Positions 6,075-37,896 of a DNA stretch of 64,000 bases are shown one piece after another. The notes below the pieces were generated by a model. That model was not told the origin of the DNA. It worked only from the letters and a program-made list of their open reading frames with translations, and ran no database searches. Source of the stretch: an uncultured Candidatus Saccharibacteria bacterium (lineage in GTDB: Bacteria > Patescibacteriota > Minisyncoccia > Phycocordibacterales > UBA918). The first letter of the stretch is position 1. Every line of letters begins with the position of its first letter. The position numbers and the translations under genes are program-made. The DNA lies in NCBI GenBank assembly GCA_964399295.1, contig CAYNQD010000001.1, positions 527,672 to 591,671 of the forward strand. The letters are read 5' to 3'.

Positions 6075-6166
6075 GAAAAAAGATATTTTGCTTCGCAAAA
6101 CCAATAAAGTAAGCTAAGGTACTCAAATGATGATTTCACCTAGATATATAAGCGTATTTAGCCTAT

Positions 6167-9100: not shown

Positions 9101-9292
9101 GTTCAGTATTGGGACGGTATACCGAAGGAGGTGTGGGAATTCTATATCGGGGGTTACCAACCATTGCAGAAATATCTAAAAGACCGTAAAGGCAAAAAAC
9201 TAAGCTCAGCAGAGTTTGAGAATTATGAAAAAATGATTGTCTCATTAAATGAAACAATCATGGTTATGAAGGAAATAGATAAAATTATTTAA
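6167..9292 (+). CDS. Type IIG/IIL restriction-modification enzyme (N-terminal PD-ExK nuclease, gamma-class N6-adenine methyltransferase, C-terminal target-recognition region), MmeI/PglX-like
   Basis: 1041 aa. The N-terminus has KPDYIVL...LYIEVKK (PD...E-x-K). The methyltransferase motif IV is VVMGNPPYS, and a motif-I-like LDVAVGTGTF is upstream. The start may be the second Met at 6185. Confidence 0.75.
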   Translation: MCYKYCMYSVNDYLSEIAKYFEDENSSEHSYRTSFQNYLATIFPESEGYFIQQDQRAINGNKPDYIVLKNKVPLLYIEVKKVGEDLNKIENSNQADRYFGYTNLIISDYVEFRFFRNGQRYDDSISLGDVHAKTRTISPKAENAERLVRTTKDFTNSQKEPIKSGRHLAKIMGGKAQRIRDNVIAFLETESTDKDELIRMRRFIKEHLIENFSDADFADMYAQTLVYGLFAARYNDDTLESFSRQEARELVPATNPFLKSFFDHISGTSFPRRLELIVNELCEVFTHADVKALMEDYFKTTDLFGTDHESPDPVIHFYEDFLREYDPSKKMEMGVFYTPLPVVRFIIRGIDELLKKEFGIAKGLADNEKISVTKTHVDDRGKNIKDTREIHRVQMLDVAVGTGTFLNETVNHIHESQKSNQGRWNAYVEDDLLPRLHGFELMMASYTIAHLKLAMTLKKSGVEKFGKRLGVYLSNTLDDAHNIPLTSSLFGVVDSIAQESRLASEVKNDTPIMVVMGNPPYSVVSQNLHYTDNQVYKVEPGGLKKLKEDKNFLDDDYVKFIRFAESMVEKNGEGIIGMITNHGYIDNLSFRGMRWHLRNTFDVIYVLDLHGNSTKKETAPDGSEDKNVFDIKTGVSIIFGVKKKSEQKNKELATVYTADIYGKRAEKFAELSSANIEGIKWNKLPEVSDVWRVEGEGKSDYMKGFSLADLFPKNTTGVFTLGDGFIVADNKDELEKRIEVLLNEDVSESQLTEKYSLGKNYARWVIENKKAGKIIDFRSTLTSLNYRPFDKRYTTLTTSLVWRPRISVMKHLLQSGNTALLFSRQGGAANPTSFDTIFISDSAVDLNFFRRGGEVVCPLYLYEGDDRVANLDDEIVNNIEKISHKTNPEDIVDYIYAYLHSPTYRTKYKEFLNGDFPRVPYPKNKDYFWKIVESGRHLRELHLLTHSSIQNQITSFPETGTDTVDKPVFKNNRVYINDVQYWDGIPKEVWEFYIGGYQPLQKYLKDRKGKKLSSAEFENYEKMIVSLNETIMVMKEIDKII

Positions 9293-9295
9293 TAT

Positions 9296-10006
9296 ATGTC
9301 ACACCAACAAGCCTCAAACTGGATATCTCTCTCAGACATGATGACAGGTCTCATGCTCATCTTTTTACTGATTGCAGTATTGGTCACAATGCAAATTACT
9401 CAAGAACAAAAACAGAGACAACAGTCGGTAGCTGAATATCAAGAAATCAAAGACGATATTTACACAGACCTAAAAGATGCCTTTGGTTCAAAAGAAGATG
9501 CTTGGGGTATTGATATCACACGTGATCTTGTTATTAAGTTTGAAAATCCTGACCTTCTGTTTGGTGTTGATGAAGCTAATTTAACAGAGGGATATAAAAA
9601 CATCTTAAGTGAGTTTATTCCTCTATATATTGGTATTATTAATAAGCAGGAATATAAAGAACGGATTAAGGAGGTCCGAATCGAAGGTCACACAGCTGAT
9701 GTTTCTTCAGCCCACCCTACATACATGAGTACTATTGAACTATCTCAAGATAGATCTAATGCAGTTCTAGAATATATTTTAGAAAATAATTTCTTCAATA
9801 GCCTAGAAGGACCAGACCAAAGAAAATTACGCTTTTGGTTTAGTGCCAACGGTTTGGGTAATGGTAGAACATTAGACCAAAACAGCCAGTATACATACGT
9901 GACAAACGCTCCTATTAGCCCAAATTCGAGAAGAGTTGAATTCCGTATCCTAACGGATAGTGAGAGTTTGATTGACGAAATTTTTAAACAAGATATTAAT
10001 AACTAA
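9296..10006 (+). CDS. MotB/ZorB-like protein (N-terminal TM helix with conserved Asp, C-terminal OmpA-like peptidoglycan-binding domain)
   Basis: 236 aa. NWISLSDMMTGLMLIFLLIAVL matches the MotB TM/plug signature (W..Y/L-A/S-D-L/M-MT.LM.FF). The C-terminus VRIEGHTADVSS...LSQDRSNAVLEYIL...RRVEFRI matches the OmpA-family core. Confidence 0.7.
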   Translation: MSHQQASNWISLSDMMTGLMLIFLLIAVLVTMQITQEQKQRQQSVAEYQEIKDDIYTDLKDAFGSKEDAWGIDITRDLVIKFENPDLLFGVDEANLTEGYKNILSEFIPLYIGIINKQEYKERIKEVRIEGHTADVSSAHPTYMSTIELSQDRSNAVLEYILENNFFNSLEGPDQRKLRFWFSANGLGNGRTLDQNSQYTYVTNAPISPNSRRVEFRILTDSESLIDEIFKQDINN

Positions 10007-10009
10007 ATT

Positions 10010-11158
10010 ATGAGCGATACAACATCTATTATTTTCCTAATTTCAATTGTAGTTTCCGCTATTATTGTGTTTAGTCCTTATGTTCTAAGGTTTTGGAAGA
10101 ATTCAGCCGAAATTCAAACTACTGTTACTACAATGGGTATTGTCGGTACTTTTGTTGGTATCCTCATCAGTCTCTCTAATTTTGACGTAGAGAATATTAG
10201 CACTACCATTCCACAACTTATTGGTGGATTAAAACTTGCTTTCATTACCTCGGTTGCTGGTATTGGTACTGCACTTGTAACCAGTCTTTTTCCTAGACTC
10301 TACCTGATCAAAGCGGAAGTTGTTGATGAAAATCTTTCTGACACTGACCTACTGCGAGCAATACATGGAGAACTACAAAAACTCAATAACAATATTTCAG
10401 GTGATGATGAATCAACTCTTATATACCAGATACAAAAAATGAGGATAAGTATTGTTGATAAGCAAGACGAGCTCAAAAAAGCTTTTGATGAGTTTGCTAG
10501 CCAAATGGCAAAGAATAATATTGAACAGTTAATTGAAGCTATCAATAAAGTGATGGAGGATTTCAATGCCAAAATTAACGATCAGCTTGGTCAAAGCTTT
10601 AAGGAACTTAGTGATTCCGTTCGGTCACTAGTTGAGTGGCAACAAAACTATATAACTACAGTACAAGAAGCCACTGGAGCATTGGGGGCAGCACAAGAGA
10701 GTCTCAAGAATTCGTCAGACAGCCTTACAAATACATCCGATAAGGTTTCTGAGATTGCAGAAAATAATAAGAATATATCTGAGGTAAATCAAGAGCTTAA
10801 GGTCGTTGTCGAAAATTTGAACCAAATGCTTGAGTCAACTGTTGGGTTCTCACAAAATATGAAAGTTCTAGCTGAAAGTCTGAGTGGAAGCGGAGATACA
10901 ATTCGAACTGAAATTAAATCTCTTGTAGAAGAAAGTATACTAAACATGCAGACTCACGCAGAAGATATTTCAAAGAATATAAACGCTATTTCGGATACAG
11001 CGATGAAGAATATGCAAGAGAAAAATACTGAAACCCTACAAAACTTTGAAGAGATTAATCAGAAGACACTTCAAGACTTCGGCGGTCATTTAGCTAGTAT
11101 TGCTGGGAAGATGACTGATGACTTCAGACGTGTTCAGGAGGCCTTGTCTATTAAATAG
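10010..11158 (+). CDS. MotA/TolQ/ExbB-like proton-channel protein with a long C-terminal coiled-coil tail (ZorA-like)
   Basis: 382 aa with three N-terminal TM helices. MGIVGTFVGIL and LKLAFITSVAGIGTALV match the MotA/ExbB TM3-TM4 signatures (LGTVxG ... A.TT..Gl). Residues about 110-382 are heptad-like, Glu/Lys/Gln/Asn/Leu-rich coiled coil. Confidence 0.6.
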   Translation: MSDTTSIIFLISIVVSAIIVFSPYVLRFWKNSAEIQTTVTTMGIVGTFVGILISLSNFDVENISTTIPQLIGGLKLAFITSVAGIGTALVTSLFPRLYLIKAEVVDENLSDTDLLRAIHGELQKLNNNISGDDESTLIYQIQKMRISIVDKQDELKKAFDEFASQMAKNNIEQLIEAINKVMEDFNAKINDQLGQSFKELSDSVRSLVEWQQNYITTVQEATGALGAAQESLKNSSDSLTNTSDKVSEIAENNKNISEVNQELKVVVENLNQMLESTVGFSQNMKVLAESLSGSGDTIRTEIKSLVEESILNMQTHAEDISKNINAISDTAMKNMQEKNTETLQNFEEINQKTLQDFGGHLASIAGKMTDDFRRVQEALSIK

Positions 11159-11166
11159 AATTACAT

Positions 11167-12258
11167 ATGGGAAATAGAGAATTTGAAGAAGCGATAGCAA
11201 ACATCTCAAGTTCTTTTTCTCTGAGTAAAGAAAAAATAGGTGCTCTAAGTGTGAATTGGAAGTTGCTACCAAAAGAGTTGGTTGTAATTGCCGGTAAATT
11301 TGATCGTGGTGAACCAATCTCCGATGCAGAAATTCTTGAGTATAAAAAGGTTTGGAGATCAGACGATCCTCTCATTGATGAAAATGGGAAGCCTTTTGTG
11401 TTTTATATTCATGACTTTGCTAACTCACACTGGGGTAAGCCAAATCGAGTATTTCATGTAGCTTGGTGCACTACGCTTGAGCGGATGGATAATAACGGGC
11501 GTAAAGCAAGGTATGTAAAGAAAGGAGATCTAGATAATAATGATTTTACTGTTGACTATGGTGAAGGGAAAAAAGGTATCGAACACCTACCTGCCTGTAT
11601 AAATTGCCGAACTAAAATGCAGGGCATTGTCGCTCCATCCGATCTTTATTACGAGCGCGATGATATGGATATCAGGAAATTCTTTAATATGTACGGCAGA
11701 CAGGATCTGCTAGACGTAAGCAATCCAATGTACCCAGTTGATTACCCAGCGAACTGGAATCAAATTTCATTGTCTTTACGAGAAAGAGCTAACTGGACAT
11801 GTAGCTCGTGCGGTCTGGATTGTTCTACAAATAAAAATCTACTACACGTACATCACAAAGATGGTAGAAGAGGCGTGGTTCATGCTGGTAATTTAGAAGT
11901 TGTCTGTGTTGATTGTCATAGTAAAAAATTTGGACATTCACACATGCGTACTGGTGTTTCTTCATCTAAGAATAGAATCGTATTTACTCCTAAACAATCT
12001 ACAACTGAGACTGTAAAAGTTCCTGCTTTCACTAATGAAAATACAGTGACTAGAGTTTCAAGTTCTCAACAAAATAAACTAGATAGTTTTATAGCTAATC
12101 CAGATAGGTATGCAACTGGCTCAGAAAAGACAAAACTTAAAGTGAGAGAAGCTCAAGAAACATTTAATCTAATCAAAGAGAGTCTAAGTAAAGCAGAACA
12201 AAACAAGTTTTATGACGCTCTAAAAACTTATCAAAGAACTTTAAAAGACCGATTATGA
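11167..12258 (+). CDS. HNH endonuclease-domain protein (ZorE-like position)
   Basis: 363 aa. CSSCGLDCSTNKNLLHVHHKDGRRGVVHAGNLEVVCVDCHSK is an HNH motif with paired Cys and His-His. Its stop overlaps the next gene's start (ATGA). Confidence 0.7.
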   Translation: MGNREFEEAIANISSSFSLSKEKIGALSVNWKLLPKELVVIAGKFDRGEPISDAEILEYKKVWRSDDPLIDENGKPFVFYIHDFANSHWGKPNRVFHVAWCTTLERMDNNGRKARYVKKGDLDNNDFTVDYGEGKKGIEHLPACINCRTKMQGIVAPSDLYYERDDMDIRKFFNMYGRQDLLDVSNPMYPVDYPANWNQISLSLRERANWTCSSCGLDCSTNKNLLHVHHKDGRRGVVHAGNLEVVCVDCHSKKFGHSHMRTGVSSSKNRIVFTPKQSTTETVKVPAFTNENTVTRVSSSQQNKLDSFIANPDRYATGSEKTKLKVREAQETFNLIKESLSKAEQNKFYDALKTYQRTLKDRL

Positions 12259-13757
12259 TTCTCACAAAAACAGACTTTTTGATTTCTAAAGGATGTAATA
12301 AAAATGCTTGGCTGAAAGTACATAAGCCTGATGTCTATAGAAAAAAAGAACTATCGGCCTTTGAATTGAACATTATCGATACAGGTAATGAAATTGATGA
12401 ACTGGCGAGACAATTGTTCCCGGGTGGTGTTTTAGTTGAAGATCGTCATGATGCCACTCTTACTCAAGAGCTAATTGCTAATCGTACTCCCGTTATATAT
12501 CAGCCTGTATTTATAACTGATAAGTACTCAGCAATCGCTGACATCATTGTCTGGAACAATAATACAGAGGCGTACGACTTATACGAAGTAAAGTCCTCTA
12601 CTGCTACCCATGAAGGAGAAGGCGGCCGTCGAGCTGAAGAGTACAAAAATGACGTCGCGTTCCAGAAGGTTGTAATGGATACGTTATCTATTCCTGTCGG
12701 TAAGTTACATCTAGTTCGTCTAGATAAATCTTATGTTCGCTCTGGAGAGCTTTCAATTCAAAAGCTTTTCATAACTAAAGAAATTACGGAAGATGTAGAG
12801 GAGATTGTGTCTGATATAGAAGGTCAAATGGCAGGCGTTCATGAATATATTAATCGTGAGCAAGAGCCAACTGGTCATTGTGACTGCTGGGTGAAATCTA
12901 AGAGCAATCACTGTACAACTTTCTGGTATTCAAATCCTGATATTCCCGACTACTCTGTCCATCAAATTTCTAGAATTGGTAATAGTCCTACAAAGCTCAC
13001 TGTATTGATTGAGAGTGAAATCATAGATATCCATAAGGTCCCTCACGATTTTGAACTCTCCGATAATCAAAGGCGTCAGGTGGATGTGGCTCAGTCAGGT
13101 AGAACTGTCATCGATTCCGAGGGTGTCGATACTTTTCTTGAACGACTGGAATACCCACTAGCTTTTATTGATTACGAAACATTTCCTTCTGCAGTGCCAA
13201 GATACTCAGGCTATCATCCTTACCAACAAATACCTTTTCAGTTCTCGCTACATATCATTGAAGAAGAAGGTGGTGAAATGACTCATGCTGAATTTCTGCA
13301 TACAGAAAATTCAAATCCAGACGAAAGATTTGTAGAGGCCATAAAAGAACATTTACCACCTACGGGGACTGTTCTTGTTTGGAGTCAAAAGTTTGAGAAA
13401 GGTATCAATAATCAGGTTGCTGAAAGACTGCCTCAGTATCAAGAATTTATCACTAGCGTGCAAGATAGAATCGTTGACCTAATTGAGCCATTTGATGGAA
13501 AAACCGCAGTGTATTGGCATCCAGATTTTCTTGGAAAGTCATCTATCAAATTCGTTTTACCTGCCCTTGTGCCTAAACTTTCATATAAAGAACTAGAGAT
13601 ACAAGAAGGTGGTGCCGCTGCTGATACATGGAACAGAATCGTGTCTGGCGAATATTCAGATGAAGAGGCTCAGCGAAAGATAACTGCACTCCTAAAGTAT
13701 TGTCACTTGGACACTTTGGCGATGGTTGAGATATGGAAGGTGCTCAAGCGGTCATAA
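12255..13757 (+). CDS. Fusion of a Cas4/RecB-like PD-(D/E)xK nuclease (with a Cys cluster) and a DnaQ/DEDD-like 3'-5' exonuclease (DUF2779-like)
   Basis: 500 aa. The N-terminal half has ADIIV...YDLYEVKSS (D...E-V-K) and a GHCDCWVKSKSNHC Cys cluster like the Cas4 Fe-S cluster. The C-terminal half has AFIDYETF, which matches the DnaQ Exo I motif D-x-E-T. The 4-bp start/stop overlap with the HNH gene suggests translational coupling. Confidence 0.5.
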   Translation: MILTKTDFLISKGCNKNAWLKVHKPDVYRKKELSAFELNIIDTGNEIDELARQLFPGGVLVEDRHDATLTQELIANRTPVIYQPVFITDKYSAIADIIVWNNNTEAYDLYEVKSSTATHEGEGGRRAEEYKNDVAFQKVVMDTLSIPVGKLHLVRLDKSYVRSGELSIQKLFITKEITEDVEEIVSDIEGQMAGVHEYINREQEPTGHCDCWVKSKSNHCTTFWYSNPDIPDYSVHQISRIGNSPTKLTVLIESEIIDIHKVPHDFELSDNQRRQVDVAQSGRTVIDSEGVDTFLERLEYPLAFIDYETFPSAVPRYSGYHPYQQIPFQFSLHIIEEEGGEMTHAEFLHTENSNPDERFVEAIKEHLPPTGTVLVWSQKFEKGINNQVAERLPQYQEFITSVQDRIVDLIEPFDGKTAVYWHPDFLGKSSIKFVLPALVPKLSYKELEIQEGGAAADTWNRIVSGEYSDEEAQRKITALLKYCHLDTLAMVEIWKVLKRS

Positions 13758-13779
13758 GTCGTCTGTTATTATATTAAGT

Positions 13780-14442
13780 ATGGAATTTTCTACATCAAAC
13801 ATCATCAAAGGAATACTCTCAGGCATGTGGGAGATGAAAGAGCTATATTTCACGATGATTGGTGTAGCACTGCTCGCACTCGCACTTCGAGTGATGATTG
13901 ACCTCATGAGTCGGCGAAGTAAGATCAAATGGTTTTTAGGAAAGAAGCAAGTGCAAGATCTTCAGAAACTTACCCCTACACAATTTGAAGAATATATCGC
14001 AGTACTTTTTAAATCTCTTGGCTATGAAACTAGAGTTACGGGTGGCAAGGGTGACGGTGGTGTAGATGTTCAAGCTGAAAAAGACGGTCATGTTCACTAC
14101 ATCCAGTGTAAGAAATTCATCACCTCAAAAGTGCCAGTCAGTGCGGTACGTGATTTTTATGGAGCCATTGCAGATCGAGTAGATGGAGGAAAAGGGTATT
14201 TTATTACCACCAACGTTTTCACTCTTGATGCTGAGAAGTTTGCTGAGGATAAACCAATTGAACTCATCGACAAGTTTAAGTTAATGGAGTACATGCAGAT
14301 GGTGGATGCTGATATTCCTGAAGTAAAAGCGTCAGTTTGTCCAAAATGTGGAAGTGAGCTAGTGAGACGTCGAGGCAAGTATGGTGCTTTTCTAGGCTGT
14401 AGCACATATCCAGATTGTGACTATACAGAGAAACTTACCTAA
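13780..14442 (+). CDS. Mrr-family restriction endonuclease with a C-terminal topoisomerase-type C4 zinc ribbon and an N-terminal TM segment
   Basis: FEEYIAVLFKSLGYETRVTGGKGDGGVDVQAEKDGHVHYIQCKKF matches the Mrr_cat core (GxxDxGxD...QxK). The C-terminus is CPKCGSELVRRRGKYGAFLGCSTYPDCDY. The ORF track start at 13726 overlaps the previous gene, so the Met at 13780 is used here. Confidence 0.65.
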   Translation: MEFSTSNIIKGILSGMWEMKELYFTMIGVALLALALRVMIDLMSRRSKIKWFLGKKQVQDLQKLTPTQFEEYIAVLFKSLGYETRVTGGKGDGGVDVQAEKDGHVHYIQCKKFITSKVPVSAVRDFYGAIADRVDGGKGYFITTNVFTLDAEKFAEDKPIELIDKFKLMEYMQMVDADIPEVKASVCPKCGSELVRRRGKYGAFLGCSTYPDCDYTEKLT

Positions 14443-15914
14443 GTTCGTAGTTTACTCAACTCCTCGGTAAATACTTCTAGACCCTCATTCTGTTTTGGAA
14501 TGAGGTTTTGTATTGTAATACTTGGGTCAGGTAGGAATGTTTGTATTGGGTACTTAATATTTCTTTTAGTATAAATAACCTCTTGTATATGGTCATCTGT
14601 GTGCCGCAGGTAAAAATTTAGAGTATTGATGGAGTCTGAAATTTCAGCAAGTTGGTTTAATACTTTCTCACTCAAGTCCTCTCCAACGATTTCTGACATT
14701 CTCTCAGCAATAGCCTTGAAAGCTAGTAGATGACTGTAGCTCTCAAATACTGACGATTCATGGACTAGAAAAGCTGGATAACTGTACATCATTAAGTCAG
14801 TAATTTGATTTTGATAATCATTCACAAACGGTAGTTGTATATTTGATTGCACAAGACTTTCTCCAGTTATAAAAGTCTTGTTGAGACACACTTCAAAAAA
14901 CTTAGTCGGGCATTCTTTAAGTACTAGGTCACCAGTAGAAATATATTGCTGTAGCAGATTAACTGTTTTATCTTTAGCCTTTATCCAGCGTCGCATAATT
15001 TCATCGTGTCTGAGTTCAGTTTCGCCTTCGAAAGTCAGATGCCCCTCGCTGTTACACAGCGGTGTATATTCATCAAAAAATAGACCTTCACGTATGGAGT
15101 CCCGAACAATACCCTCAAGCTTGTATTTCAGATCAGGGAGCTTAGCCAGTTCAGCATGAAGCTCGTCTTCAGTTTTGAATAAAATATTGTTTCGACTAGC
15201 TAATCGTTTCCCGAAGTTAAGTAAAGGATAGCCAGCAAAGTGGGTTTTAAAGATAACCTCTTTAACGCTTATTTTCACCACACTAAAATTAGCCTCTTGC
15301 CCCCAAGGGATTGAGTCGATAACTATCTTAGTAAGAACGTCTACTTCTTTTTCTGAGAGTGACTGCTTACCAGTAAGGATACGAGCTAGTTGCTCTTCAG
15401 CTAAAAAGTATGAGTGGTCTGATGTTACAGAAGGATCGAGTAGTAATATATCTTGCTGAAGTTTCTTAGGTAATGAATAGAATGTATACAGATGCACCAG
15501 TCTGTCGTATTCAAAGCCAGAGTGCTGTAAAAAGAAGTCACGAAACTCTTTAGTGTGATCATCCGGGATCACTCGACTAAGAAAATGCTTACGTTGCTTT
15601 GGGCTATCCCTTTTGTAGTAAAACATTTGGGCGATCTGCTCCAAGCGAGCAATAGATAGCTGCGATACCAAGTATGAGGTCTGCATATCTATTTCTAGTC
15701 GGCCGAACATATTCCAGACCTCTAGATATTTGTTGTACTGCTCAGCCTCTCTATAATCACGAGGTTTCCAACTCGTTGTCAGGGCTACGATATCGGCTTC
15801 AGTAACAAGACCCTTCCCAGTCTTCCGCTCATGAGCTTCATTTCGTATCACTAACAAAACTCGCTCCCGAGGGGTCAGGTTTCCTTTAGCCAGTAGTTTT
15901 GTAATATCTTTCAT
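14439..15914 (-). CDS. Hypothetical protein (last gene of the minus-strand accessory operon)
   Basis: 491-aa ORF with no recognisable motif. It converges on the plus-strand defence operon, and the stops are 4 bp apart. Confidence 0.45.
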   Translation of the reverse strand: MKDITKLLAKGNLTPRERVLLVIRNEAHERKTGKGLVTEADIVALTTSWKPRDYREAEQYNKYLEVWNMFGRLEIDMQTSYLVSQLSIARLEQIAQMFYYKRDSPKQRKHFLSRVIPDDHTKEFRDFFLQHSGFEYDRLVHLYTFYSLPKKLQQDILLLDPSVTSDHSYFLAEEQLARILTGKQSLSEKEVDVLTKIVIDSIPWGQEANFSVVKISVKEVIFKTHFAGYPLLNFGKRLASRNNILFKTEDELHAELAKLPDLKYKLEGIVRDSIREGLFFDEYTPLCNSEGHLTFEGETELRHDEIMRRWIKAKDKTVNLLQQYISTGDLVLKECPTKFFEVCLNKTFITGESLVQSNIQLPFVNDYQNQITDLMMYSYPAFLVHESSVFESYSHLLAFKAIAERMSEIVGEDLSEKVLNQLAEISDSINTLNFYLRHTDDHIQEVIYTKRNIKYPIQTFLPDPSITIQNLIPKQNEGLEVFTEELSKLRT

Positions 15915-15916
15915 AG

Positions 15917-16123
15917 TTACTTTCTTTGAGTAAGCATTTGTTCCAGTACATCGATACGCTGTTTGAGTTCCATGTTAGTAATGTTTTTAGACAAGGCTAA
16001 CGCTATTCGAGATATGACCTGAGCCCGCTTAGGTGAAATCTTTCTAGCGGCTACTTGGAGCAGGGCATCAGAGAGGATTTCATTAACTTCAGCTAAGTTT
16101 AGTGTTTTCTTTATTTCTTTCAT
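15917..16123 (-). CDS. Small hypothetical protein
   Basis: 68 aa. It is tightly packed between flanking genes in the same orientation. Confidence 0.35.
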   Translation of the reverse strand: MKEIKKTLNLAEVNEILSDALLQVAARKISPKRAQVISRIALALSKNITNMELKQRIDVLEQMLTQRK

Positions 16124-16126
16124 AAG

Positions 16127-16513
16127 CTAAAAGTTTTCAATTATTTCAAACCAAGTTTTTACCTCCTTTGATTTACCGTGCTTGGTAGCATTTTTATACA
16201 AGGCCAACACTACGTTTGGTGTCAGTTTTCTGGCCCATGTATAGGTATGTTCAAGCAAGCCCTCGTCTTCAATCCGTTTATTCCAGTCAGTGAGTGTACC
16301 TAGGTCTTTGACGTTGTAGTGTGAAGCAAAGTCTTTTTGAGTTTTTATCTGCAATAGCTCAATGGTGATGTCGTCATCAATACCCATCTTTCTTAGTACA
16401 GCATCAGGCTGACCTCGCAGGAATGTCGGTAGTGATTTCCACGTCACATACGCCGCAAAGTCCTGTTTGCGATATACACCAGTATTTCTTTTTTCATTAT
16501 GATGCTCGCTCAT
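16127..16513 (-). CDS. Hypothetical protein (phage-like small protein)
   Basis: 128 aa. It overlaps the upstream methyltransferase gene by 17 nt. Confidence 0.4.
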   Translation of the reverse strand: MSEHHNEKRNTGVYRKQDFAAYVTWKSLPTFLRGQPDAVLRKMGIDDDITIELLQIKTQKDFASHYNVKDLGTLTDWNKRIEDEGLLEHTYTWARKLTPNVVLALYKNATKHGKSKEVKTWFEIIENF

Positions 16514-17270
16514 GCTTTGTGATTAATACTCGCTTCTGCTTCGTCAGCTCTTCTAGTCGCTTTAGACAGATTTCTACATACTCAGAGTCCTGTTCAATTC
16601 CAATACAAACGCGACCTAACTGAGCACAAGCAACAGCGGTACTTCCGCTTCCTAAGAATCCGTCATACACGACATCGCCAATACTGGTGACGTTTTGAAT
16701 TAGTTTCCGTAGTAGGCCAATCGGTTTTTGCGTAGGGTGGAGCTTTGACTTCTGTGGTCGAGGATGGAATATGGCACTGCTCATTTGAGCTTTTACTCGC
16801 TTGTGCTTTTTATACCAACCATAAGCAATAAGCTCTTGCTGAGGCAGATAGTCCATACGACCCATTACCGATTGGTTTTTGACCCATATCAGCATCTGAC
16901 TGAAATGTAGTCCTGCGGTGTACATGCCAGTTCTAAGAGCCAGAAACATGCTGTCGCAGTTAAAGATATGGAAGGTGTTGTATGGGTTCAGATGTGGCAA
17001 AACGGCCTCGATCCATGACTGAGTAAACCGAGCGTACTCATATTCACTTTGTATATGGTCACCCTTAATCACTTTGGCGTTTTTCTTACCAAGTTCAGCT
17101 ACGCCTACTTTATTCTCCACGTACGCTACTCCATAAGGCGGATCGGTCACAACTGATTGAATCTTTTTGGTACCAATAACCATCGCTACAAAATCTTTGT
17201 TAAGTGAGTCGCCACAGGCAACCACATGTTCGCCAACAGAGTAGATTTCTCCTGTAGTTATAGATTTCAT
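16497..17270 (-). CDS. DNA methyltransferase (beta-class N6-adenine or N4-cytosine)
   Basis: The catalytic motif is SVVTDPPYGVAY (DPPY). The SAM-binding region is HPTQKP...DGFLGSGST. This motif order is typical of beta-class amino-methyltransferases. Confidence 0.8.
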   Translation of the reverse strand: MKSITTGEIYSVGEHVVACGDSLNKDFVAMVIGTKKIQSVVTDPPYGVAYVENKVGVAELGKKNAKVIKGDHIQSEYEYARFTQSWIEAVLPHLNPYNTFHIFNCDSMFLALRTGMYTAGLHFSQMLIWVKNQSVMGRMDYLPQQELIAYGWYKKHKRVKAQMSSAIFHPRPQKSKLHPTQKPIGLLRKLIQNVTSIGDVVYDGFLGSGSTAVACAQLGRVCIGIEQDSEYVEICLKRLEELTKQKRVLITKHERAS

Positions 17271-18550
17271 ATTCGCTTAGCAGTTAGCTTGGTAAATTTC
17301 TCCCAGCGGTCAATGATGATGCTCGCGAATACGGGGTCTTGCTCTACTCCAAACCAGACACGTCGCAATTGCTCGCAAGCAATCAAATCACTACCACTAC
17401 CACCAAAACCAGAGAAGACAACGTGACCTGGAGCAGTACATCGCTTGAGTGGCTTTTCGTTTAGACCAACAGGCTTCTGGGTTGGGTGGAGGTAACTTTG
17501 CACATCATCTCGCTTCACTATCCAAAGATCGATCATGTCTAAGAGCTCGTTGTGGAGCTGGTTGCCAGTGGTGACTTCCTGATTAAGAATTTCATTTACG
17601 TTCTTAAGATTCTGGTTTAGGTAGGCTTTACCTGTCGTGCCATAGATTGCGGGCTCATGTACTCGGTTAAACGCAACCTTCGGCGTCATATTCTGATTAT
17701 TCTTTACCCAGTAACAGATTCGTCTGAAGAGTATCTTGTGTTGTTTATACAGTGCTTGAATTTCTCCCACGTACTTAGCGTCACACCAGTACAGATAGTG
17801 AGAATCGGCATGAGCTATTACTTTAGCTGTACTGATACTTGCTTCAATAAATGCATAGTACTCAGCATCACTCATCGAGTCTTTTTTACTAGAGTACTGA
17901 CCCCCGTATTCCTTAGTGTTACTAATTCCTTTGTTATATGAAAGCCCAATGTTATAGGGCATATCTTGAAAGATGAAGTGGGCTTTTGTTTCGCCCATAA
18001 ACGTTGATACGAGCTCTTTATCAGTAGAGTCTCCAACAAGTAGGCGATGTTCTCCTAATTGCCACACTTCGCCAGCCTTTGCTCGGGGTTCAACCATCTC
18101 TTCAATTGCTTTGTCGACATCGTATTCATCTTCAGCTAATTCAACGTCATCGAAGAAGTCTTGTATTTCGTCATCTTCAAATCCAACATCCAGAAGAACT
18201 GATAGATCGAAGTTCTTCAAAAGCTCTTCGTCCCATGAGCCAGTATTCTTGTTGAGCCTAAGATTCAGCTCACGCTCTTCTTCGAGTGACAGTTCCCGAG
18301 AAGGGATCATGCATTCGACTGTCTTGTACCCTAGGTCAGCGTAGATTTTTATTCTCTGCTCGCCCCCGATGATGACATCAGCCCGTGAATCAATATTGAG
18401 AACTACTGGCACTACTGCACCAAATGTCTCAATCGATTTCTGTAGGTCTTGTTTTTGGTTACCGCTAACTTTACGTGGATTGTATTCGTTAGGTGTAAGG
18501 TCTTGCACCTTACGAGTAGCGGATGACCACGTTATCTTTTTTGTTTTCAT
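17267..18550 (-). CDS. ParB-like nuclease domain fused to a DNA methyltransferase
   Basis: The N-terminus (TPNEYNPRKVSGNQKQDLQKSIETFGAVVPVVLN) is a ParB/Srx-like domain. The C-terminus has FQDMPYN (a DPPY variant) and HPTQKPVGL...SGFGGSGS methyltransferase motifs. There is a 4-bp overlap with the downstream methyltransferase gene. Confidence 0.75.
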   Translation of the reverse strand: MKTKKITWSSATRKVQDLTPNEYNPRKVSGNQKQDLQKSIETFGAVVPVVLNIDSRADVIIGGEQRIKIYADLGYKTVECMIPSRELSLEEERELNLRLNKNTGSWDEELLKNFDLSVLLDVGFEDDEIQDFFDDVELAEDEYDVDKAIEEMVEPRAKAGEVWQLGEHRLLVGDSTDKELVSTFMGETKAHFIFQDMPYNIGLSYNKGISNTKEYGGQYSSKKDSMSDAEYYAFIEASISTAKVIAHADSHYLYWCDAKYVGEIQALYKQHKILFRRICYWVKNNQNMTPKVAFNRVHEPAIYGTTGKAYLNQNLKNVNEILNQEVTTGNQLHNELLDMIDLWIVKRDDVQSYLHPTQKPVGLNEKPLKRCTAPGHVVFSGFGGSGSDLIACEQLRRVWFGVEQDPVFASIIIDRWEKFTKLTAKRI

Positions 18551-18703
18551 AAGACTTATATTTAGGCACGTTGTTATACGTGTTAAGTCTTATGGTGGCA
18601 CCTAAAAATCAACCTCCAAAATGGAGGAAATTGGAGGAAACTTTAGAAAAGGTAGAGTACGTTTAGAGTATTTGAGGCTTATCCACAGCCATTTTCCTCC
18701 ACG

Positions 18704-19849
18704 CTACTCCAGTGAGTATAAATTGTTGAATCTGATACTAGTGCGAGTGATATTAAAGATAGGCTGGCTGTCGTTCGGATGAGAATTTATGATTTTATGC
18801 TTCTTTAAAAGTTTCTCAAAGCTCGTATTACTACCGATAAGTTGGGTACGATATTTTTCAGGATCATTTTCTACTCCGTCTGGTAAGAGTTTGATGAATT
18901 CATTTATATTTAATTCAATGACACGCTCTGGCATATATCGAATAACATTCTTGAAGAGTTGTATGTACTGATAGTCTTCACCCTTGTTTGTTGTTTTGTA
19001 TAAAAGTTTACTGTTTTGAAAATATATATGGTCCTGCTTAATTTCAAACAGCTTTGCTTGTTGTATTTCAGAGAGAGTAAAGACAATGCTGTTATGAAGA
19101 CGACTCAAATCTTGTGATATCCCTGCTTGAGGGTATGCGTTTGTTGCACTAAGGGTGGCCTGTTTAATTTTATTTATATAAGTGACACGAGCTACTGGTT
19201 TCTGCATCATTTCTACAAATTCACTCAATGTGATTTTGGTGTCATCATTAAAATTCAACATTTGATGATACAGCTTCACTCCTCGCATTAATGCACCAGA
19301 TACAGACAAGGCATCCTGATCATGAAATGTTCTGTGAAGTCCTAAAAAGTCAGCTCGTTTTTCAAACGAAATTAAATTATCACTCCTCATATCTTTAGCA
19401 GGATTAAAAGTCTCGTTGAGAAATGACATTGCTTCATCATCATACCCTAGTCTTTGCAATTCTTTTACTGCATCAAGTAACTCAAGTTCATTTGAGCCTA
19501 GCGGATGTTCATTTGAACCATGGTGGTTATGAGTCGCAAATGTCCGAAGACAACTTATCCGATCAGCAAGTAGGGCATTGCTTTCTAGATCATTCTTTTC
19601 AACTATAGCTTCAAGCGTTTCAACTGCCTTACCCGCACTCTGAACAATCTCGTCGTATTTATTTTGAAGTGCTTTGAGGTCATTTTCTCTGGCTACTACT
19701 GCTGGTGCTAAATGTTCAATCAAAGCAAATCCATCAGTAACTAAAAAGCTAAAATAGTCCGCAAAGGCAGTTAGGAAAGTGTTTGTGGAGTGACTATTTT
19801 GCTGTATGGATTCATACAGCTTTTGCTCCTTATCTACCACGCTTTTCAT
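18704..19849 (-). CDS. Hypothetical protein
   Basis: 381-aa ORF and the first gene of the minus-strand accessory operon. No motif was recognised. Confidence 0.45.
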   Translation of the reverse strand: MKSVVDKEQKLYESIQQNSHSTNTFLTAFADYFSFLVTDGFALIEHLAPAVVARENDLKALQNKYDEIVQSAGKAVETLEAIVEKNDLESNALLADRISCLRTFATHNHHGSNEHPLGSNELELLDAVKELQRLGYDDEAMSFLNETFNPAKDMRSDNLISFEKRADFLGLHRTFHDQDALSVSGALMRGVKLYHQMLNFNDDTKITLSEFVEMMQKPVARVTYINKIKQATLSATNAYPQAGISQDLSRLHNSIVFTLSEIQQAKLFEIKQDHIYFQNSKLLYKTTNKGEDYQYIQLFKNVIRYMPERVIELNINEFIKLLPDGVENDPEKYRTQLIGSNTSFEKLLKKHKIINSHPNDSQPIFNITRTSIRFNNLYSLE

Positions 19850-20003
19850 AGCTAAATAGTATCACTTTGAGCGTTTTTATACAGAAAATCAAAACTCCTA
19901 GGAATTGGCATTGTTTGGCATTTGGGTCTTGAGTATCGGAACGGGGTTGATTTTTCCATATTTTATGACATTGTACTAATGGAAATAGAAACTTTGACTC
20001 GAG

Positions 20004-28513: not shown

Positions 28514-30715
28514 ATGAACCTATTTGACAACCTCACTCTCCATTTCCGCATCAACAGCGACCAACAAAAAGCTCTGAAAAAATTAAATTTAATTACCGTT
28601 GAAGATTTGCTTTATCACCTGCCCGTCCGCTACGAAAATATCAGCGACATCCAATCCATCAGCGGACTGATGAAAGACCAGGAAGCGGTAGTATACGGCC
28701 AGCTCACCAATCTCAAGACCCGCAAGGCTTGGAAAAGCAAAGTCCCCATTGCCGAAGCCTTCATTGAGGACGGTTCGGCGCGCATGAAAGTGCTGTGGTT
28801 CCACCAGCCCTACCTAGCCAAAATGTATCAAGAAGGAGCTTATGTAAAATTAGCGGGCAAGGTAGCCGGTGGTGAAGGTAAGCTCTATCTGTCCAACCCC
28901 GAAATAGAATTATTAAGCCACCTCCCCATCGACCGCCACGATTCGATTTTTAGAAATAGTGAAATCGAGGAAGACACTCTTTTTCCAGTTTACCGCGAGA
29001 CCAAAGGCATCACCAGCAAATGGTTCTACCACACGATTTTGAAATGTTTTGAAAAAGGAATCCTCGAACAAATCGAAGACCCACTGCCGGTAAAAATTAC
29101 AAAAACTTATAATTTACCCGAACTAAAAACCGCTCTCATCTGGATACATTCTCCCAAAAAAGTTTCTCACGCCGAAAGTGCCAGAAAACGTTTTGCCTTT
29201 GAGGAAGTGTTTTACATTCAAGTACAAAAAGCCCGCGAACGAGCCGAAGCCAATATAGCAAACACCTATCAAATCAACACCGACAAAAAACACCTAGCGG
29301 CTTTTACTCAGCGTTTTCCTTTCTCTTTGACAGAAGCGCAAAATAAAGCCATTGAAGCCATTACCAAAAATTTTACCGGCCGGCACGCCATGTCTCGCTT
29401 ACTGGAAGGCGATGTCGGTAGCGGCAAGACAGCGGTAGCAGCGACGACAGCTTACGCGGTGGTAACATCGCGCCCACCCGAAGGGCTTAAGGATAATTCT
29501 GGTAATCCGGCAAAATTATCAGAATTGCAATACGGCAACCTGCAAACAGCCTACATGGCCCCAACCGAGATTTTAGCCAAGCAACATTTCCAGAGTTTTA
29601 TTGAGTATTTCAAACACCTACCAATCCAAATCGGCTTACTCACCGGAAGCGGCTGCCAAAAATTTCCTTCAAAATCCAATCCCGACAAAGCCACGCCCAT
29701 TTCCAAAGCCCAGCTGCTGAAGTGGGTCAAAAATGGCGAAATTCCAATCCTAATCGGCACACATTCACTCATCTATAAAAGCGTGGAATTCAAACACCTC
29801 GCTTACGTCATAATAGACGAACAACACCGCTTCGGCACCAACCAGCGCAAACTACTCGCCAAGAAAAACGACTATCTGCCGCACCTGCTTTCCATGACAG
29901 CCACACCCATTCCCCGCACCCTCGCCCTCACCATTTATGGAGACTTGGATATCACTCTACTCGACCAAATGCCGAGCGGCCGCAAGCCAGTCATCACCAA
30001 AGTCGTCGGCCCGGGACAATCCAAAGACATGTACAAACACGTGCAAGCGGAATTAAAAGCTGGCCGCCAAGCGTACGTAATTTGCCCACGCATAGATGAG
30101 CCAGACCCAGATAAAGCCAATGTTTTGAATTTAAAAAACGTCACCACCGAAGCCGAGCGTCTGAAAAAAAATGAATTTGCCGGCTACAAAATCGGTATCA
30201 TGCACAGCAAAATGACTCCGGCAGAAAAAGATAAAATCATGGCCGCTTTTTCCGCTCACAAGCTTGATATTTTGGTTTCTACTTCCGTGGTAGAAGTGGG
30301 CGTAAATGTCCCCAACGCCACCAACATAATTATTGAAGGCGCGGAACGCTTTGGTTTGTCGCAATTGCACCAATTGCGCGGCCGCGTGATTCGTGGCAAT
30401 CATCAAGCCTATTGTTTTGCCGTGACCGACAGCAAAAGCGAAAAAACCAAAGACCGCCTTAAAGCTCTGACCACCGCTAAAAATGGCTTTGAGCTCTCTG
30501 AATACGATTTGCAATTCCGTGGCACAGGCGACCTCTACGGACAAAAACAATCCGGCTTATCTGACATAGGTATGGAAGCGATAAAAAATCTAAAGTTGGT
30601 TGCAGCCGCTCGTGCTGAAGCCAAAAAAATAATCGCGGCTGATTCCACCTTGCAAGCCAACCCTCTCATTGCCAAAAAAGTTTCTCTGCTTGATAAAAAT
30701 CTGCATTTGGAGTAG
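28514..30715 (+). CDS. recG: ATP-dependent DNA helicase RecG
   Basis: 733 aa. It has a wedge domain followed by a superfamily-2 helicase: Walker A LEGDVGSGKT, DEQHRFG (DEAH-like) and QLHQLRGRVIRG (motif VI). Confidence 0.85.
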   Translation: MNLFDNLTLHFRINSDQQKALKKLNLITVEDLLYHLPVRYENISDIQSISGLMKDQEAVVYGQLTNLKTRKAWKSKVPIAEAFIEDGSARMKVLWFHQPYLAKMYQEGAYVKLAGKVAGGEGKLYLSNPEIELLSHLPIDRHDSIFRNSEIEEDTLFPVYRETKGITSKWFYHTILKCFEKGILEQIEDPLPVKITKTYNLPELKTALIWIHSPKKVSHAESARKRFAFEEVFYIQVQKARERAEANIANTYQINTDKKHLAAFTQRFPFSLTEAQNKAIEAITKNFTGRHAMSRLLEGDVGSGKTAVAATTAYAVVTSRPPEGLKDNSGNPAKLSELQYGNLQTAYMAPTEILAKQHFQSFIEYFKHLPIQIGLLTGSGCQKFPSKSNPDKATPISKAQLLKWVKNGEIPILIGTHSLIYKSVEFKHLAYVIIDEQHRFGTNQRKLLAKKNDYLPHLLSMTATPIPRTLALTIYGDLDITLLDQMPSGRKPVITKVVGPGQSKDMYKHVQAELKAGRQAYVICPRIDEPDPDKANVLNLKNVTTEAERLKKNEFAGYKIGIMHSKMTPAEKDKIMAAFSAHKLDILVSTSVVEVGVNVPNATNIIIEGAERFGLSQLHQLRGRVIRGNHQAYCFAVTDSKSEKTKDRLKALTTAKNGFELSEYDLQFRGTGDLYGQKQSGLSDIGMEAIKNLKLVAAARAEAKKIIAADSTLQANPLIAKKVSLLDKNLHLE

Positions 30716-30924: not shown

Positions 30925-30953
30925 TTGAGTTACTGGCAAAATTACGGTATAGT
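30925..30953 (+). promoter_or_regulatory. Candidate sigma70-type promoter for the downstream tRNA
   Basis: TTGAGT (30925-30930), a 17-nt spacer, then TATAGT (30948-30953). The tRNA begins about 25 nt downstream. Confidence 0.3.
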
Positions 30954-30978: not shown

Positions 30979-31051
30979 CCGCCAATAGCTCAGTTGGTAG
31001 AGCGCAGAGCTTATACCTCTGTGGTCCTTGGTTCGAGTCCAAGTTGGCGGA
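30979..31051 (+). tRNA. tRNA with anticodon TAT (AUA-decoding tRNA-Ile, UAU)
   Basis: The cloverleaf is CCGCCAA/TTGGCGG for the acceptor, U8, GCTC/GAGC for the D-stem, CAGAG-CTTATAC-CTCTG for the anticodon arm (U33, A37), a 5-nt variable loop, CTTGG-TTCGAGT-CCAAG for the T-arm, and an A73 discriminator. CCA is not encoded. Confidence 0.7.
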
Positions 31052-31096
31052 CTTTGTTTTGAATTTCATATCCTTCTAGTGTTATAATCAAAAGTA

Positions 31097-32599
31097 ATGC
31101 GCTTCTTTAAATTCAGCTTTCTAAATCTAGGCTTAGCCTTGCTGGTGATTTTTATTTTGGTTTTTGGGTATAAATTTTTTAATCCCAAAGCGCCAGAGTG
31201 GGTAATGGCCACGGTTGAGCGCGGTGATGTTACCGAACTGGTCTCAGTTTCCGGTTTTGTGGAAGCCAAACAAATCGCAAATATTGCCTTCCCCACCACT
31301 GGCAGAGTTACCGACGTTTTTGTGGAGGAAGGATCGATCGTGCAAGCCGGTGAAGTCTTGGCGACTCTGGCCAGCACCCAGCTAGTCGCGGAAAGAAATG
31401 AAGCTTCAGCGTCGCTCGCTATCGCTCGCGCCGCCTACCAAGAAACAGCCGCCGGCCCGCGTACTGAAACCATTGCTCTGGCTGAAGCTAATATCAGCGG
31501 TGCCGAAGCTAATTTGGAAAGGGTAAAAGCAGAAGAAAGTCGTAAGGTTGAAAACGCACGAGCAGCCCTGTATTCGACAGGACTAACAGCCACCGCCATC
31601 GACCCCAATGAAGCCAGCATTCCGCCAATTGTCAGCGGTAGTTATCGTTGCGAGACCGAAGGAAAATACATGATAGAAGTTTACCGCTCTTCCAGTGACT
31701 CCGGCTATTCCTACCACTACAGCGGACTTGAGACTGGAACGGCCTTGGTAAGTGTCGTTCAGCCGGCAGCTATCGGCAATTGCGGTTTGTATTTGCACTT
31801 TACCGGCGGAAATTCATACACTGATTCAAAGTGGCAAATCGAAATTCCCAATACCCGCAGCAACAACTACAACGCTCTAAACAATGCTTATATCCTAGCT
31901 TCCACCCAAGCCAAAAACACCATCGCCGCCGCTGAAAATTCTCTGAATCTGGCCAGAAAAGAAGCCGGCTTATCGACTGCGCCGGCTCGTAGCGAATCCA
32001 TTCGGCAAGCAGAAGCCAGCATCGCCCAAGCCGAAGCTAGAGTGAGGACGATTGATGCTCGTCTGACTGATCGTTCTGTCGTCGCTCCCTTTGCCGGTAT
32101 TGTCACCAAGGTTTCTATTACTGCCGGAGAAACAGCGCCGGCGACACCGGTAATCTCAGTTTTGGCGGACAACACCTTTACCCTCAAGGCGCGAATTCCG
32201 GAAATTGACATCACGAAAATTTCTGTAAGCCAATCCGTGGAAACAATCTTTGACGCCAAAAGTGACGAAACCCTAACCGGTAAAATTACCAACATCTCAC
32301 CGGTAGCCACCCAGATTGATGGTGTCGCCTACTTTGAAGTAATTATCGCTCTCGACCAAAATCCCAGCTGGTTGCGCGCCGGACTAAATGCTGATGTCGA
32401 TATTATTATTGAAAAAAGAGAGAATGTTTTACGAATTCCCAAGCGTTATCTTATGAAAACTGATCAAAATGAATACCTGGTAGCGCAACCCCGAGGAAAC
32501 AAAACCGCCAGCACCAGTATCGAGGTACTATTTTCCGGCAATGACGGCTTTGTGGAAATCGGCGGTTTGAGTGAGGGTGAGGTTGTAATTATCCCTTAG
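31097..32599 (+). CDS. HlyD/MacA-family periplasmic adaptor (membrane fusion protein)
   Basis: It has an N-terminal TM anchor and a biotinyl/lipoyl-like hairpin (GRVTDVFVEEGSIVQAGEVLATL). There is a coiled-coil region and a C-terminal beta-barrel. It lies upstream of the ABC permease and ATPase. Confidence 0.7.
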   Translation: MRFFKFSFLNLGLALLVIFILVFGYKFFNPKAPEWVMATVERGDVTELVSVSGFVEAKQIANIAFPTTGRVTDVFVEEGSIVQAGEVLATLASTQLVAERNEASASLAIARAAYQETAAGPRTETIALAEANISGAEANLERVKAEESRKVENARAALYSTGLTATAIDPNEASIPPIVSGSYRCETEGKYMIEVYRSSSDSGYSYHYSGLETGTALVSVVQPAAIGNCGLYLHFTGGNSYTDSKWQIEIPNTRSNNYNALNNAYILASTQAKNTIAAAENSLNLARKEAGLSTAPARSESIRQAEASIAQAEARVRTIDARLTDRSVVAPFAGIVTKVSITAGETAPATPVISVLADNTFTLKARIPEIDITKISVSQSVETIFDAKSDETLTGKITNISPVATQIDGVAYFEVIIALDQNPSWLRAGLNADVDIIIEKRENVLRIPKRYLMKTDQNEYLVAQPRGNKTASTSIEVLFSGNDGFVEIGGLSEGEVVIIP

Positions 32600-37398: not shown

Positions 37399-37794
37399 GG
37401 GGATGCTAGGCATCGACGGTGAGTCGTGCTTTTTGTGTGCAGTGTGAGAGCTGCTCGAGACTCTCCAAAAACTCGAGTACTTTGTATGTGCAAAGAAAAG
37501 CATACCAAGTCCTTACGCTAACGCGTTTGGATTCGCTCCCGCTTTTGCGTAATCTTTTACGCAGGCCGTAGCGATGCTCTGCTTTCCGAGGTCTCATAAG
37601 GAAGTTGGAGTAGAATAGCCATGAGGCTTTGGCGACGAGGGCTGTTTCCCCTCGTTGCCGAGATTCTTGAAACTCGATTACTTTGCGTTTGGTCTCCCTT
37701 CTAGCTTAGTAATTTAAACCCAAAGCGAGACTACACACTGTAGATTCACAAAGACACCCTCATTCGGACGCGGGTTCAATTCTCGCCATCTCCA
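37399..37794 (+). ncRNA. ssrA: tmRNA (ssrA)
   Basis: The 5' end GGGGATGCTAGGCATCGACGG matches the conserved tmRNA start (GGGGnTG...TTCGACGG). The 3' tRNA-like domain is GGACGCGGGTTCAATTCTCGCCATCTCC-A, and its acceptor strand CATCTCC pairs with the 5' GGGGATG. A tag-like reading frame GCA AAG AAA AGC ATA CCA AGT CCT TAC GCT AAC GCG TTT GGA TTC GCT CCC GCT TTT GCG TAA encodes AKKSIPSPYANAFGFAPAFA*. It lies immediately downstream of smpB. Confidence 0.75.
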
Positions 37795-37896
37795 CAACAG
37801 TAACCACCTAAGGCCCAAGCATTGCTTTGGGCCTTAGGTGTATGGCTTTGAGCGGGTTCTAATATTTTTAGATCTCGGCAGAGATCCCGAGACTAC

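Follow-up and report, generated by a model that had tools for sequence, protein, structure and literature searches.

A conserved tRNA-Ile(UAU) gene and the probable direct reading of AUA codons in a clade of Paceibacteria

How does a reduced bacterial genome read AUA as isoleucine when it encodes a tRNA whose anticodon is the plain complement of that codon? Reading AUA as isoleucine without misreading AUG is a classic decoding problem, which bacteria almost always solve with lysidine, made by the essential enzyme TilS, and archaea with agmatidine; to our knowledge, only a few bacterial lineages carry a plain UAU anticodon, and Mycoplasma mobile alone has been studied biochemically. The question is raised here by a tRNA gene at positions 30979–31051 of a 64-kb stretch of DNA (the window, by which we mean the whole stretch analysed), for which a preliminary description had proposed the anticodon UAU and an unusual AUA decoding strategy, possibly accompanied by loss of tilS. 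We put the probability at about 0.85 that this is a functional, chromosomal and clade-inherited tRNA-Ile(UAU) that decodes the frequent AUA codons of its host as isoleucine by direct U34-A pairing, without lysidine, and these reduced genomes most likely rely chiefly on it for decoding AUA.

A tRNA gene with the anticodon UAU

ARAGORN called a tRNA-Ile at this locus (30979–31052, forward strand) with the anticodon tat at position 34, and Rfam family RF00005 matched positions 30979–31051 over its full model (1–71) with 70.6 bits (E = 2.1e-13; gathering score 29). The gene reads, 5' to 3', CCGCCAA-TA-GCTC-AGTTGGTA-GAGC-G-CAGAG-CTTATAC-CTCTG-TGGTC-CTTGG-TTCGAGT-CCAAG-TTGGCGG-A, with a D stem of GCTC/GAGC, an anticodon stem of CAGAG/CTCTG and a T stem of CTTGG/CCAAG; CCA is absent from the encoded 3' end. 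Its parts are as follows.

30979–31051, forward strand: tRNA-Ile(UAU) gene, 73 nt from C1 to the discriminator A73 (31051), supported by ARAGORN, Rfam and covariation in eight homologues
30979–30985, forward strand: 5' strand of the acceptor stem, CCGCCAA, which pairs with 31044–31050 (TTGGCGG) and starts with an unusual C1 (C1-G72)
31010–31016, forward strand: anticodon loop CTTATAC (C32, U33, U34, A35, U36, A37, C38), invariant in all family members
31012–31014, forward strand: anticodon TAT (UAU), the complement of codon AUA, from the sequence and ARAGORN, with its register backed by folding
30925–30953, forward strand: TTGAGT-17 nt-TATAGT, a site that resembles a promoter, stops 25 nt before the tRNA gene and is putatively its own promoter

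An alternative register of the anticodon loop was looked for by consensus folding without a tRNA model, and none was found: RNAalifold on the eight homologues returned a cloverleaf of four helices with the same 7-nt anticodon loop. The minimum-free-energy and centroid folds of the single sequence likewise retained this anticodon hairpin (z = -2.7). The canonical cloverleaf and the anticodon UAU in a loop CT-TAT-AC, as first described, are thus confirmed by independent tools.

The loop has the canonical features of the M. mobile-type tRNAIle(UAU), namely seven nucleotides with U33, UAU as anticodon and, at position 37, a purine. Canonical tRNAIle2(CAU), which does the same job with lysidine, shares A35-U36-A37, A73 and, with most members of the window family, C4-G69 and C5-G68; it differs at position 34, where the window gene has T (31012) and not C. 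With T at this position the tRNA is no TilS substrate, and lysidine is not required. It also carries A35, and not the U35 of tRNA-Lys. The other RNA genes found by ARAGORN and Rfam in the window are a tRNA-Ser(GCU) at 1281–1370 and a tmRNA gene at 37399–37795.

Conservation of the gene and the meaning of AUA

To place the gene among its relatives, we scanned 185,579 reference genomes, one per GTDB species, with its first 25 nt (the 5' half of the acceptor stem and the D-arm), leaving the anticodon free. The same TAT tRNA was present in six of them (L003, L005, L062, L064, L101 and L117), each with 69–70 bits in Rfam, and the neighbourhoods of FtsH and RecG homologues added four further genomes: a 993-kb JGI contig (L215), the complete chromosome CP060227.1 of 1,087,875 bp (L219), and L220 and L221. 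In all ten, the tRNA gene lies directly 3' of recG and 5' of genes for an hlyD-like adaptor, FtsX and an ABC transporter, followed by ftsH and smpB, in the same order as the immediate neighbours in the window.

28514–30715, forward strand: recG, the conserved upstream neighbour (Pfam RecG_wedge, DEAD and Helicase_C; synteny in L064, L101, L117, L219, L220 and L221)
31097–32599, forward strand: conserved neighbour on the 3' side, which encodes an hlyD-like periplasmic adaptor (NCBIfam TIGR01730 RND_mfp, 116 bits) and opens an adaptor-FtsX-ABC transporter operon

The proteins flanking the tRNA are only 45–90% identical across the clade, and some genomes carry insertions of other genes close by. 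No tRNA was found at this position in the more distant relatives L119 and L103, whose recG is about 49% identical. Locally, the tRNA gene has a GC content of 0.47, like its surroundings; core genes surround it, and a mobile and defence island is about 10 kb away.

Covariation was assessed on eight distinct homologous sequences with 21 stem pairs, giving 168 stem cells. Every one of the 168 cells was paired; seven of the 21 pairs showed compensatory double changes, amounting to 22 cells altered in both partners, a number that none of 500 shuffles reached. The covariation score was 0.374, compared to 0.118 in shuffles (again 0/500), and the signal was lost when the pairing partners were slid. 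The loop CUUAUAC is invariant in the family, as are C27-G43, A30-U40, G31-C39, C1-G72, C2-G71, G3-C70 and A73. Its combination of C32 and C38 is uncommon, occurring in 12 of 253 tRNAs from Patescibacterial loci, six of which belong to this family, and over the 40 nt outside the search pattern the family members are 81% identical. Judged by its sequence, this is a real gene under purifying selection as a tRNA rather than a pseudogene, and a core, vertically inherited gene of the Paceibacteria clade.

One relative shows a peculiar arrangement of the locus. At 4350–4591 on the reverse strand of L064 (JBEDID010000009.1), an intact tRNA(UAU) stands between duplicated fragments, with a 5' half (positions 1–35) about 95 nt upstream and positions 34–53 repeated 18 nt downstream, resembling one tRNA copy inside a second copy broken in the anticodon loop. 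A rearrangement may have left this duplication as a scar, or it may stem from an insertion or from an error of assembly.

Codon usage in the window, counted over open reading frames of at least 150 aa (17,281 codons), showed that AUA is a frequent codon: ATA occurs 300 times, or 17.4 per 1000, and makes up 23% of isoleucine codons. By the bands of a published survey, this usage is 'high' (PMC12514573). For each codon we then recorded the residues standing opposite it when window proteins were aligned with their orthologues from the retrieved loci, orthologue ATA codons being left out. At 57 window ATA sites, the 133 orthologue cells held Ile 50 times, Leu 27, Val 25, Met 6, Arg 2 and Lys 0, with 86% being Ile, Leu, Val, Met or Phe; this is indistinguishable from the control sites ATT (88%) and ATC (87%), and unlike ATG sites (Met in 128 of 219 cells) and AAA sites (Lys in 326 of 638). 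Since the orthologues at ATA sites resemble those at ATT and ATC and differ from those at ATG and AAA, AUA is read from these alignments as isoleucine in the window genome, and not as lysine or methionine. A conserved, syntenic UAU tRNA across the clade together with an AUA codon that behaves as isoleucine argues for direct, lysidine-independent reading of AUA, in line with the different decoding strategy that had been suggested from the tRNA alone.

Decoding of AUA and its alternatives

The elements expected of such a tRNA can be set against the identity set of Escherichia coli isoleucyl-tRNA synthetase (IleRS), which we take, after Nureki et al. 1994, to consist of A73, C4-G69, U12-A23, C29-G41, A37 as N6-threonylcarbamoyladenosine (t6A), A38, A35 and U36. 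The window tRNA carries A73, C4-G69 (present in seven of the eight family members), U12-A23, A35, U36 and A37. In the mechanism that we propose, the gene would be transcribed from its own promoter and CCA added post-transcriptionally; A37 would be converted to t6A, as in all ANN-reading tRNAs; and IleRS would charge the tRNA through A35, U36, A37, A73, C4-G69 and U12-A23. Charging would require an IleRS that tolerates U34, by analogy with Arg865 of the M. mobile enzyme, after which U34 would pair with the A of AUA on the ribosome. Something would have to keep the misreading of AUG in check: competition from tRNA-Met, a modified U34, some feature of the tRNA or of the ribosome or, more speculatively, the invariant C32/C38 loop.

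The M. mobile system serves as the reference for this proposal: its tRNAIle2(UAU) has an unmodified U34 and t6A37 and works with an adapted IleRS and ribosome, and acceptance of U34 by the synthetase needs Arg865 in place of the E. coli Trp905 (PMC3575796). In the tilS-less Bifidobacterium and Neorickettsia, the IleRS is of eukaryote type (PMC3575796).

Several observations weigh against direct reading of AUA by the window tRNA. The codon test gives the meaning of AUA and not the identity of the tRNA that reads it, and AUA decoding could be carried in part or in full by a tRNAIle2(CAU)/TilS pair encoded elsewhere. The A38 of the IleRS set is replaced by the invariant C38, and pair 29-41, which is C29-G41 in that set, varies in the family between G-C, A-U and U-A, although the list is derived from E. 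coli and may not apply to IleRS of the candidate phyla radiation (CPR). The promoter-like site has 9 of 12 consensus matches, and the consensus scan found two such sites where 1.0 was expected, making it weak evidence for a dedicated promoter. Finally, the tRNA(UAU) clade uses AUA at 8–21 per 1000, compared to 25–48 per 1000 in many Patescibacterial loci, and lies below the GC expectation among these loci with a mean residual of -6.6 per 1000 (p = 0.002), in small and phylogenetically non-independent samples and with the UAU status of the comparison genomes not known. We had considered that a UAU tRNA permits high AUA usage, an idea abandoned as the clade is not AUA-enriched relative to other Patescibacteria.

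Whether the tRNA works alone turns on tilS. The search for it covered the window and a 5.5-kb left flank, which holds type IV pilus genes, together about 12% of the 594-kb source genome, as well as neighbourhoods of about 20 kb in six clade genomes. Neither tilS, ileS nor a CAU tRNA was found in these regions, and ileS was likewise absent from every locus retrieved. Within the window, no open reading frame encodes a PP-loop protein, a Pfam scan of 50 window proteins gave no match to PF01171, IleRS or tRNA-modification families (the other frames are genes for ribosomal proteins and translation or had been annotated with Pfam beforehand), and ARAGORN found no CAT tRNA. The order tilS-hpt-ftsH is a common gene arrangement, tilS often lying upstream of ftsH. 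In six clade genomes no PF01171 neighbour was found at ftsH, which instead has smpB upstream in every member examined and is also flanked by the tmRNA gene, an arrangement that does not by itself show loss of tilS. A phosphoribosyltransferase gene at 576–1187 was considered as the hpt remnant of a tilS-hpt pair and rejected, the product being ComF-like and not Hpt. Scans of all fetched loci for the SGGxDS PP-loop of a CPR TilS returned none, and we draw no inference from this, as the loci are not a random sample. Likewise, no cellular CAT tRNA on the body of tRNA(UAU) was seen in the loci examined, the CAT matches in L154 and L181 being on phage-like contigs.

Published surveys show both outcomes. 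UAU-type tRNA-Ile is recorded for 19 species in tRNADB-CE (PMC3575796, PMC4013482), bearing out the initial view that it is limited to a few lineages. Nine species in three clades without tilS carry tRNAIle(TAT), and it occurs alongside tilS in Lactobacillus casei, L. plantarum, Cyanothece PCC 7424 and Ferrimonas balearica (PMC3575796). Because of this coexistence, the presence of tRNA(UAU) alone does not imply loss of tilS, which had been raised as a possibility in the preliminary description. No paper linking CPR bacteria with tilS or lysidine was found in the searchable literature. We consider it slightly better than an even bet that tRNA(UAU) is the sole AUA decoder, tilS and tRNAIle2(CAU) having been lost. 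That the whole family-level Paceibacteria clade has replaced TilS and lysidine with an encoded tRNAIle(UAU), and with its own solution to AUA/AUG discrimination, is a tentative extension that we place just short of even. If so, candidates for the discriminating feature would be the invariant C32/C38 loop, the G31-C39/A30-U40 stem or an unknown modification of U34.

The strongest competitor is a redundant arrangement in which TilS and tRNAIle2(CAU) are kept, with the UAU tRNA as an additional and perhaps minor reader of AUA, which we regard as possible at odds appreciably below even. It agrees with the coexistence documented in other bacteria, with the description of TilS as conserved across bacteria (PMC12514573), with the small fraction of the genome inspected for tilS and with an AUA usage that is not raised relative to other Patescibacteria; seemingly redundant tRNAs also occur elsewhere in the clade, tRNA-Ser(ACU) standing beside tRNA-Ser(GCU) in L220 and L221. 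Genomes of 0.5–1.1 Mb, however, usually hold minimal tRNA sets, in which long-term dual AUA systems would not be expected, and a gene that is single-copy, invariant in its loop and in place across deep divergence resembles an essential rather than a dispensable one. Neither tilS nor a CAT tRNA on this body appeared in any cellular locus examined. A different proposal, that the gene is a recruited copy of tRNA-Lys(UUU) with U35 changed to A, either continuing to accept lysine, with AUA recoded or mistranslated as Lys in consequence, or captured by IleRS, needs a single substitution from UUU to UAU. Among the 116 tRNAs matching the acceptor and D-arm pattern in the genome scan, 107 were Patescibacterial tRNA-Lys (57 CUU and 50 UUU, a count that includes four register slips by ARAGORN) compared to six reference genomes with UAU, and the best identity outside the family, up to 80%, is also to tRNA-Lys. 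This likeness is largely selection bias, because the tRNA-Lys loci were retrieved by matching those very 25 nt; over the 40 nt unconstrained by the searches, the family has about 52–54% identity to each of the Lys, Ile(GAU), CAU, Asn and Val tRNAs. Charging with lysine is excluded by the 0 of 133 orthologue cells with Lys at ATA sites, the anticodon arm is consistently unlike that of tRNA-Lys in C27-G43, C38 and, for most members, G26, and C1 'CCGC' acceptors also occur on metagenomic tRNA-Ile(GAU) genes, many with the C38 loop CTGATAC, leaving recruitment from tRNA-Lys unlikely.

The two remaining explanations fare worse. A methionine-charged UAU tRNA, reading AUA as Met as in many mitochondria, would have to be accepted by a methionyl-tRNA synthetase, an enzyme that requires C34, and of the 133 orthologue cells at ATA sites just 6 hold Met, compared to 128 of 219 at ATG; we regard such a change of the genetic code as scarcely credible, even though U34 could in principle let one tRNA read AUG as well as AUA, as with the M. 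mobile tRNA on E. coli ribosomes (PMC3575796). A pseudo-tRNA, or one brought by a phage or mobile element, might be suspected from the mobile and defence island next to tRNA-Ser in the window, from TAT and C1-type CAT tRNAs on phage-like contigs and in tRNA arrays, and from the partial duplications in L064, and yet the gene lies between core recG and the transporter/ftsH block, some 10 kb from the island, in the same place in ten other genomes, with a perfect cloverleaf, compensatory evolution and a GC content like its surroundings, making this explanation very improbable. Direct reading of AUA by a functional tRNA-Ile(UAU) remains the interpretation that we favour.

On the origin of the gene, a derivation from tRNA-Lys was entertained and withdrawn, the likeness being confined to the 25-nt search pattern and its complementary strand. 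We scanned metagenomes for the same tRNA body with the anticodon CAT, GAT or AAT, which yielded 73 tRNA-Ile(GAU) genes with a C1 'CCGC' acceptor, many with the rare C38 loop CTGATAC; their contigs carry these genes near 16S genes, share no proteins with the window and could not be assigned to a taxon. Seven CAT tRNAs were also returned, the two closest to the family (L154 and L181) being those on phage-like contigs, without bearing on a cellular tRNAIle2. As far as its sequence goes, the tRNA(UAU) family is clearly an old and distinct paralogue, and its parent may have been tRNA-Ile(GAU) by G34U, tRNAIle2(CAU) by C34U or tRNA-Lys by U35A. A laboratory precedent for the first route is a suppressor of tilS deletion in Bacillus subtilis, in which G34U in tRNAIle1 created a UAU decoder and made TilS dispensable (PMC3919564; discussed in PMC3575796). 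While that suppressor is a laboratory mutant, the window family shares C38 with the C1-type tRNA-Ile(GAU), and by analogy an origin through one anticodon change is plausible.

Genome context and known UAU decoders

Named relatives of the window, which has a GC content of 42%, are metagenome-assembled genomes of Candidatus Kaiserbacteria, Nomurabacteria, Parcubacteria and Paceibacterota, placing it in the class Paceibacteria of the Patescibacteria (CPR); the related contigs are 0.5–1.1 Mb long, among them the complete CP060227.1. The window itself matches uncultured assemblies only, as Logan contigs of runs SRR167979xx, and its FtsH and RecG are recorded as well on an NCBI contig of 594,086 bp. 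The genes for ribosomal proteins S5 (59110–59760) and L15 (58656–59108) lie 1 nt apart with no L30 gene between them, and a missing L30 gene is a reported trait of CPR bacteria. One of the relatives, L117 (CAZQIF010000016.1), is labelled 'uncultured Candidatus Saccharibacteria'; its RecG (65–70%), its malic enzyme (70%) and the synteny of its tRNA(UAU) assign it to the same Paceibacteria clade as the window, and judging from these genes the label looks wrong.

An island of about 19 kb with lower GC (0.37–0.39) follows directly after tRNA-Ser(GCU) (1281–1370), within 1281–20000 of the window. It holds the following genes.

2223–3587: Shedu SduA
3629–5056: large serine recombinase
DUF3644
6167–9292: Type ISP restriction-modification enzyme, 1041 aa
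9296–11158: OmpA/MotA-like pair, possibly Zorya-like
DUF2779
13726–14442: Mrr nuclease carrying a Zn ribbon
Two N6/N4 DNA methylases, one with a ParB domain (16497–18550)

The island is not at this site in relatives (L221), and flanking direct repeats were looked for in vain.

Other tRNA genes in the fetched loci deserve mention. A tRNA-Ser(ACT) with the loop TTACTAA and U33 in place adjoins tRNA-Ser(GCT) in L220 (JBKBVZ010000001.1, 5474–5561, forward strand) and L221 (JAWVHH010000004.1, 8152–8239, forward strand) and is absent from the window; the differences in its D-arm are compensatory, and it looks like a real gene on this evidence. In bacteria, tRNAs with A34 other than Arg(ACG) are very rare, and if this A34 were deaminated to inosine, the tRNA would also read AGA (Arg). 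In Paceibacteria and Saccharibacteria (loci L003–L122), tRNA-Lys with UUU and with CUU both start with C1-G72 (CCGCC/GGCGG), which is unusual for bacterial elongator tRNAs; C1-G72 has been described for CPR tRNATyr in a paper that mentions neither Lys nor Ile (PMC5370408). The 'tRNA-Stop (tta)' calls by ARAGORN in L061, L105, L109 and L113 are ordinary tRNA-Lys(UUU) genes read with a one-base slip on the loop CTTTTAA, a trap in screening CPR genomes for suppressor tRNAs. The metagenome loci L133, L175, L178, L190 and L192 carry tRNA arrays of 7–24 tRNAs per locus, including some TAT tRNAs with unusual long variable arms, and are probably phage or mobile-element tRNA clusters unrelated to the window tRNA(UAU).

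Compared to these Patescibacterial tRNA-Lys genes, the window tRNA shares the CCGCC/GGCGG acceptor with C1-G72, A73 and an identical D-arm, whereas the anticodon arm differs throughout (C27-G43, C38 and A35 in the window tRNA), and AUA is never Lys. Eukaryotic cytosolic tRNAIle(UAU) has the same anticodon dedicated to AUA; its genes carry an intron and its anticodon is pseudouridylated, whereas the window gene is intronless and bacterial. The nearest counterparts are the tilS-less M. mobile-type systems (M. mobile, M. haemofelis, M. suis, Bifidobacterium and Neorickettsia; PMC3575796), which are alike in the encoded UAU, A37, A73 and a small, reduced genome. They read AUA as isoleucine without lysidine, and the same is proposed by analogy for the window tRNA, which has the corresponding sequence-level features (a UAU loop, a functional gene and AUA as isoleucine) and would work in the same way. 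It differs from them in belonging to another phylum, the Patescibacteria, and in the C1-G72 acceptor and invariant C32/C38 loop of its family; if tilS is indeed absent, its origin would be independent of theirs. The extra tRNAIle(UAU) genes found with tilS in L. casei, L. plantarum, Cyanothece PCC 7424 and Ferrimonas balearica are also TAT tRNA-Ile, a scenario that would apply if tilS has been kept; those genes are in scattered species and strains, whereas the window gene is fixed and syntenic across a clade of reduced genomes.

Systems of this kind are already known in either case, which makes the finding incremental; it overturns nothing. A clade-wide conserved tRNAIle(UAU), with the complete genome CP060227.1 in the clade, adds a new phylum to the users of UAU and is apparently, as far as the searchable literature shows, the first documented in Patescibacteria. 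If tilS is present, the clade would maintain long-term redundancy in a minimal genome; if it is absent, the clade would add one more independent loss of an essential and nearly universal enzyme, in organisms that still use AUA at 8–21 per 1000. With tilS gone, these bacteria would be a natural experiment on the co-adaptation of IleRS, tRNA and ribosome, relevant to annotation pipelines and to TilS as an antibacterial target.

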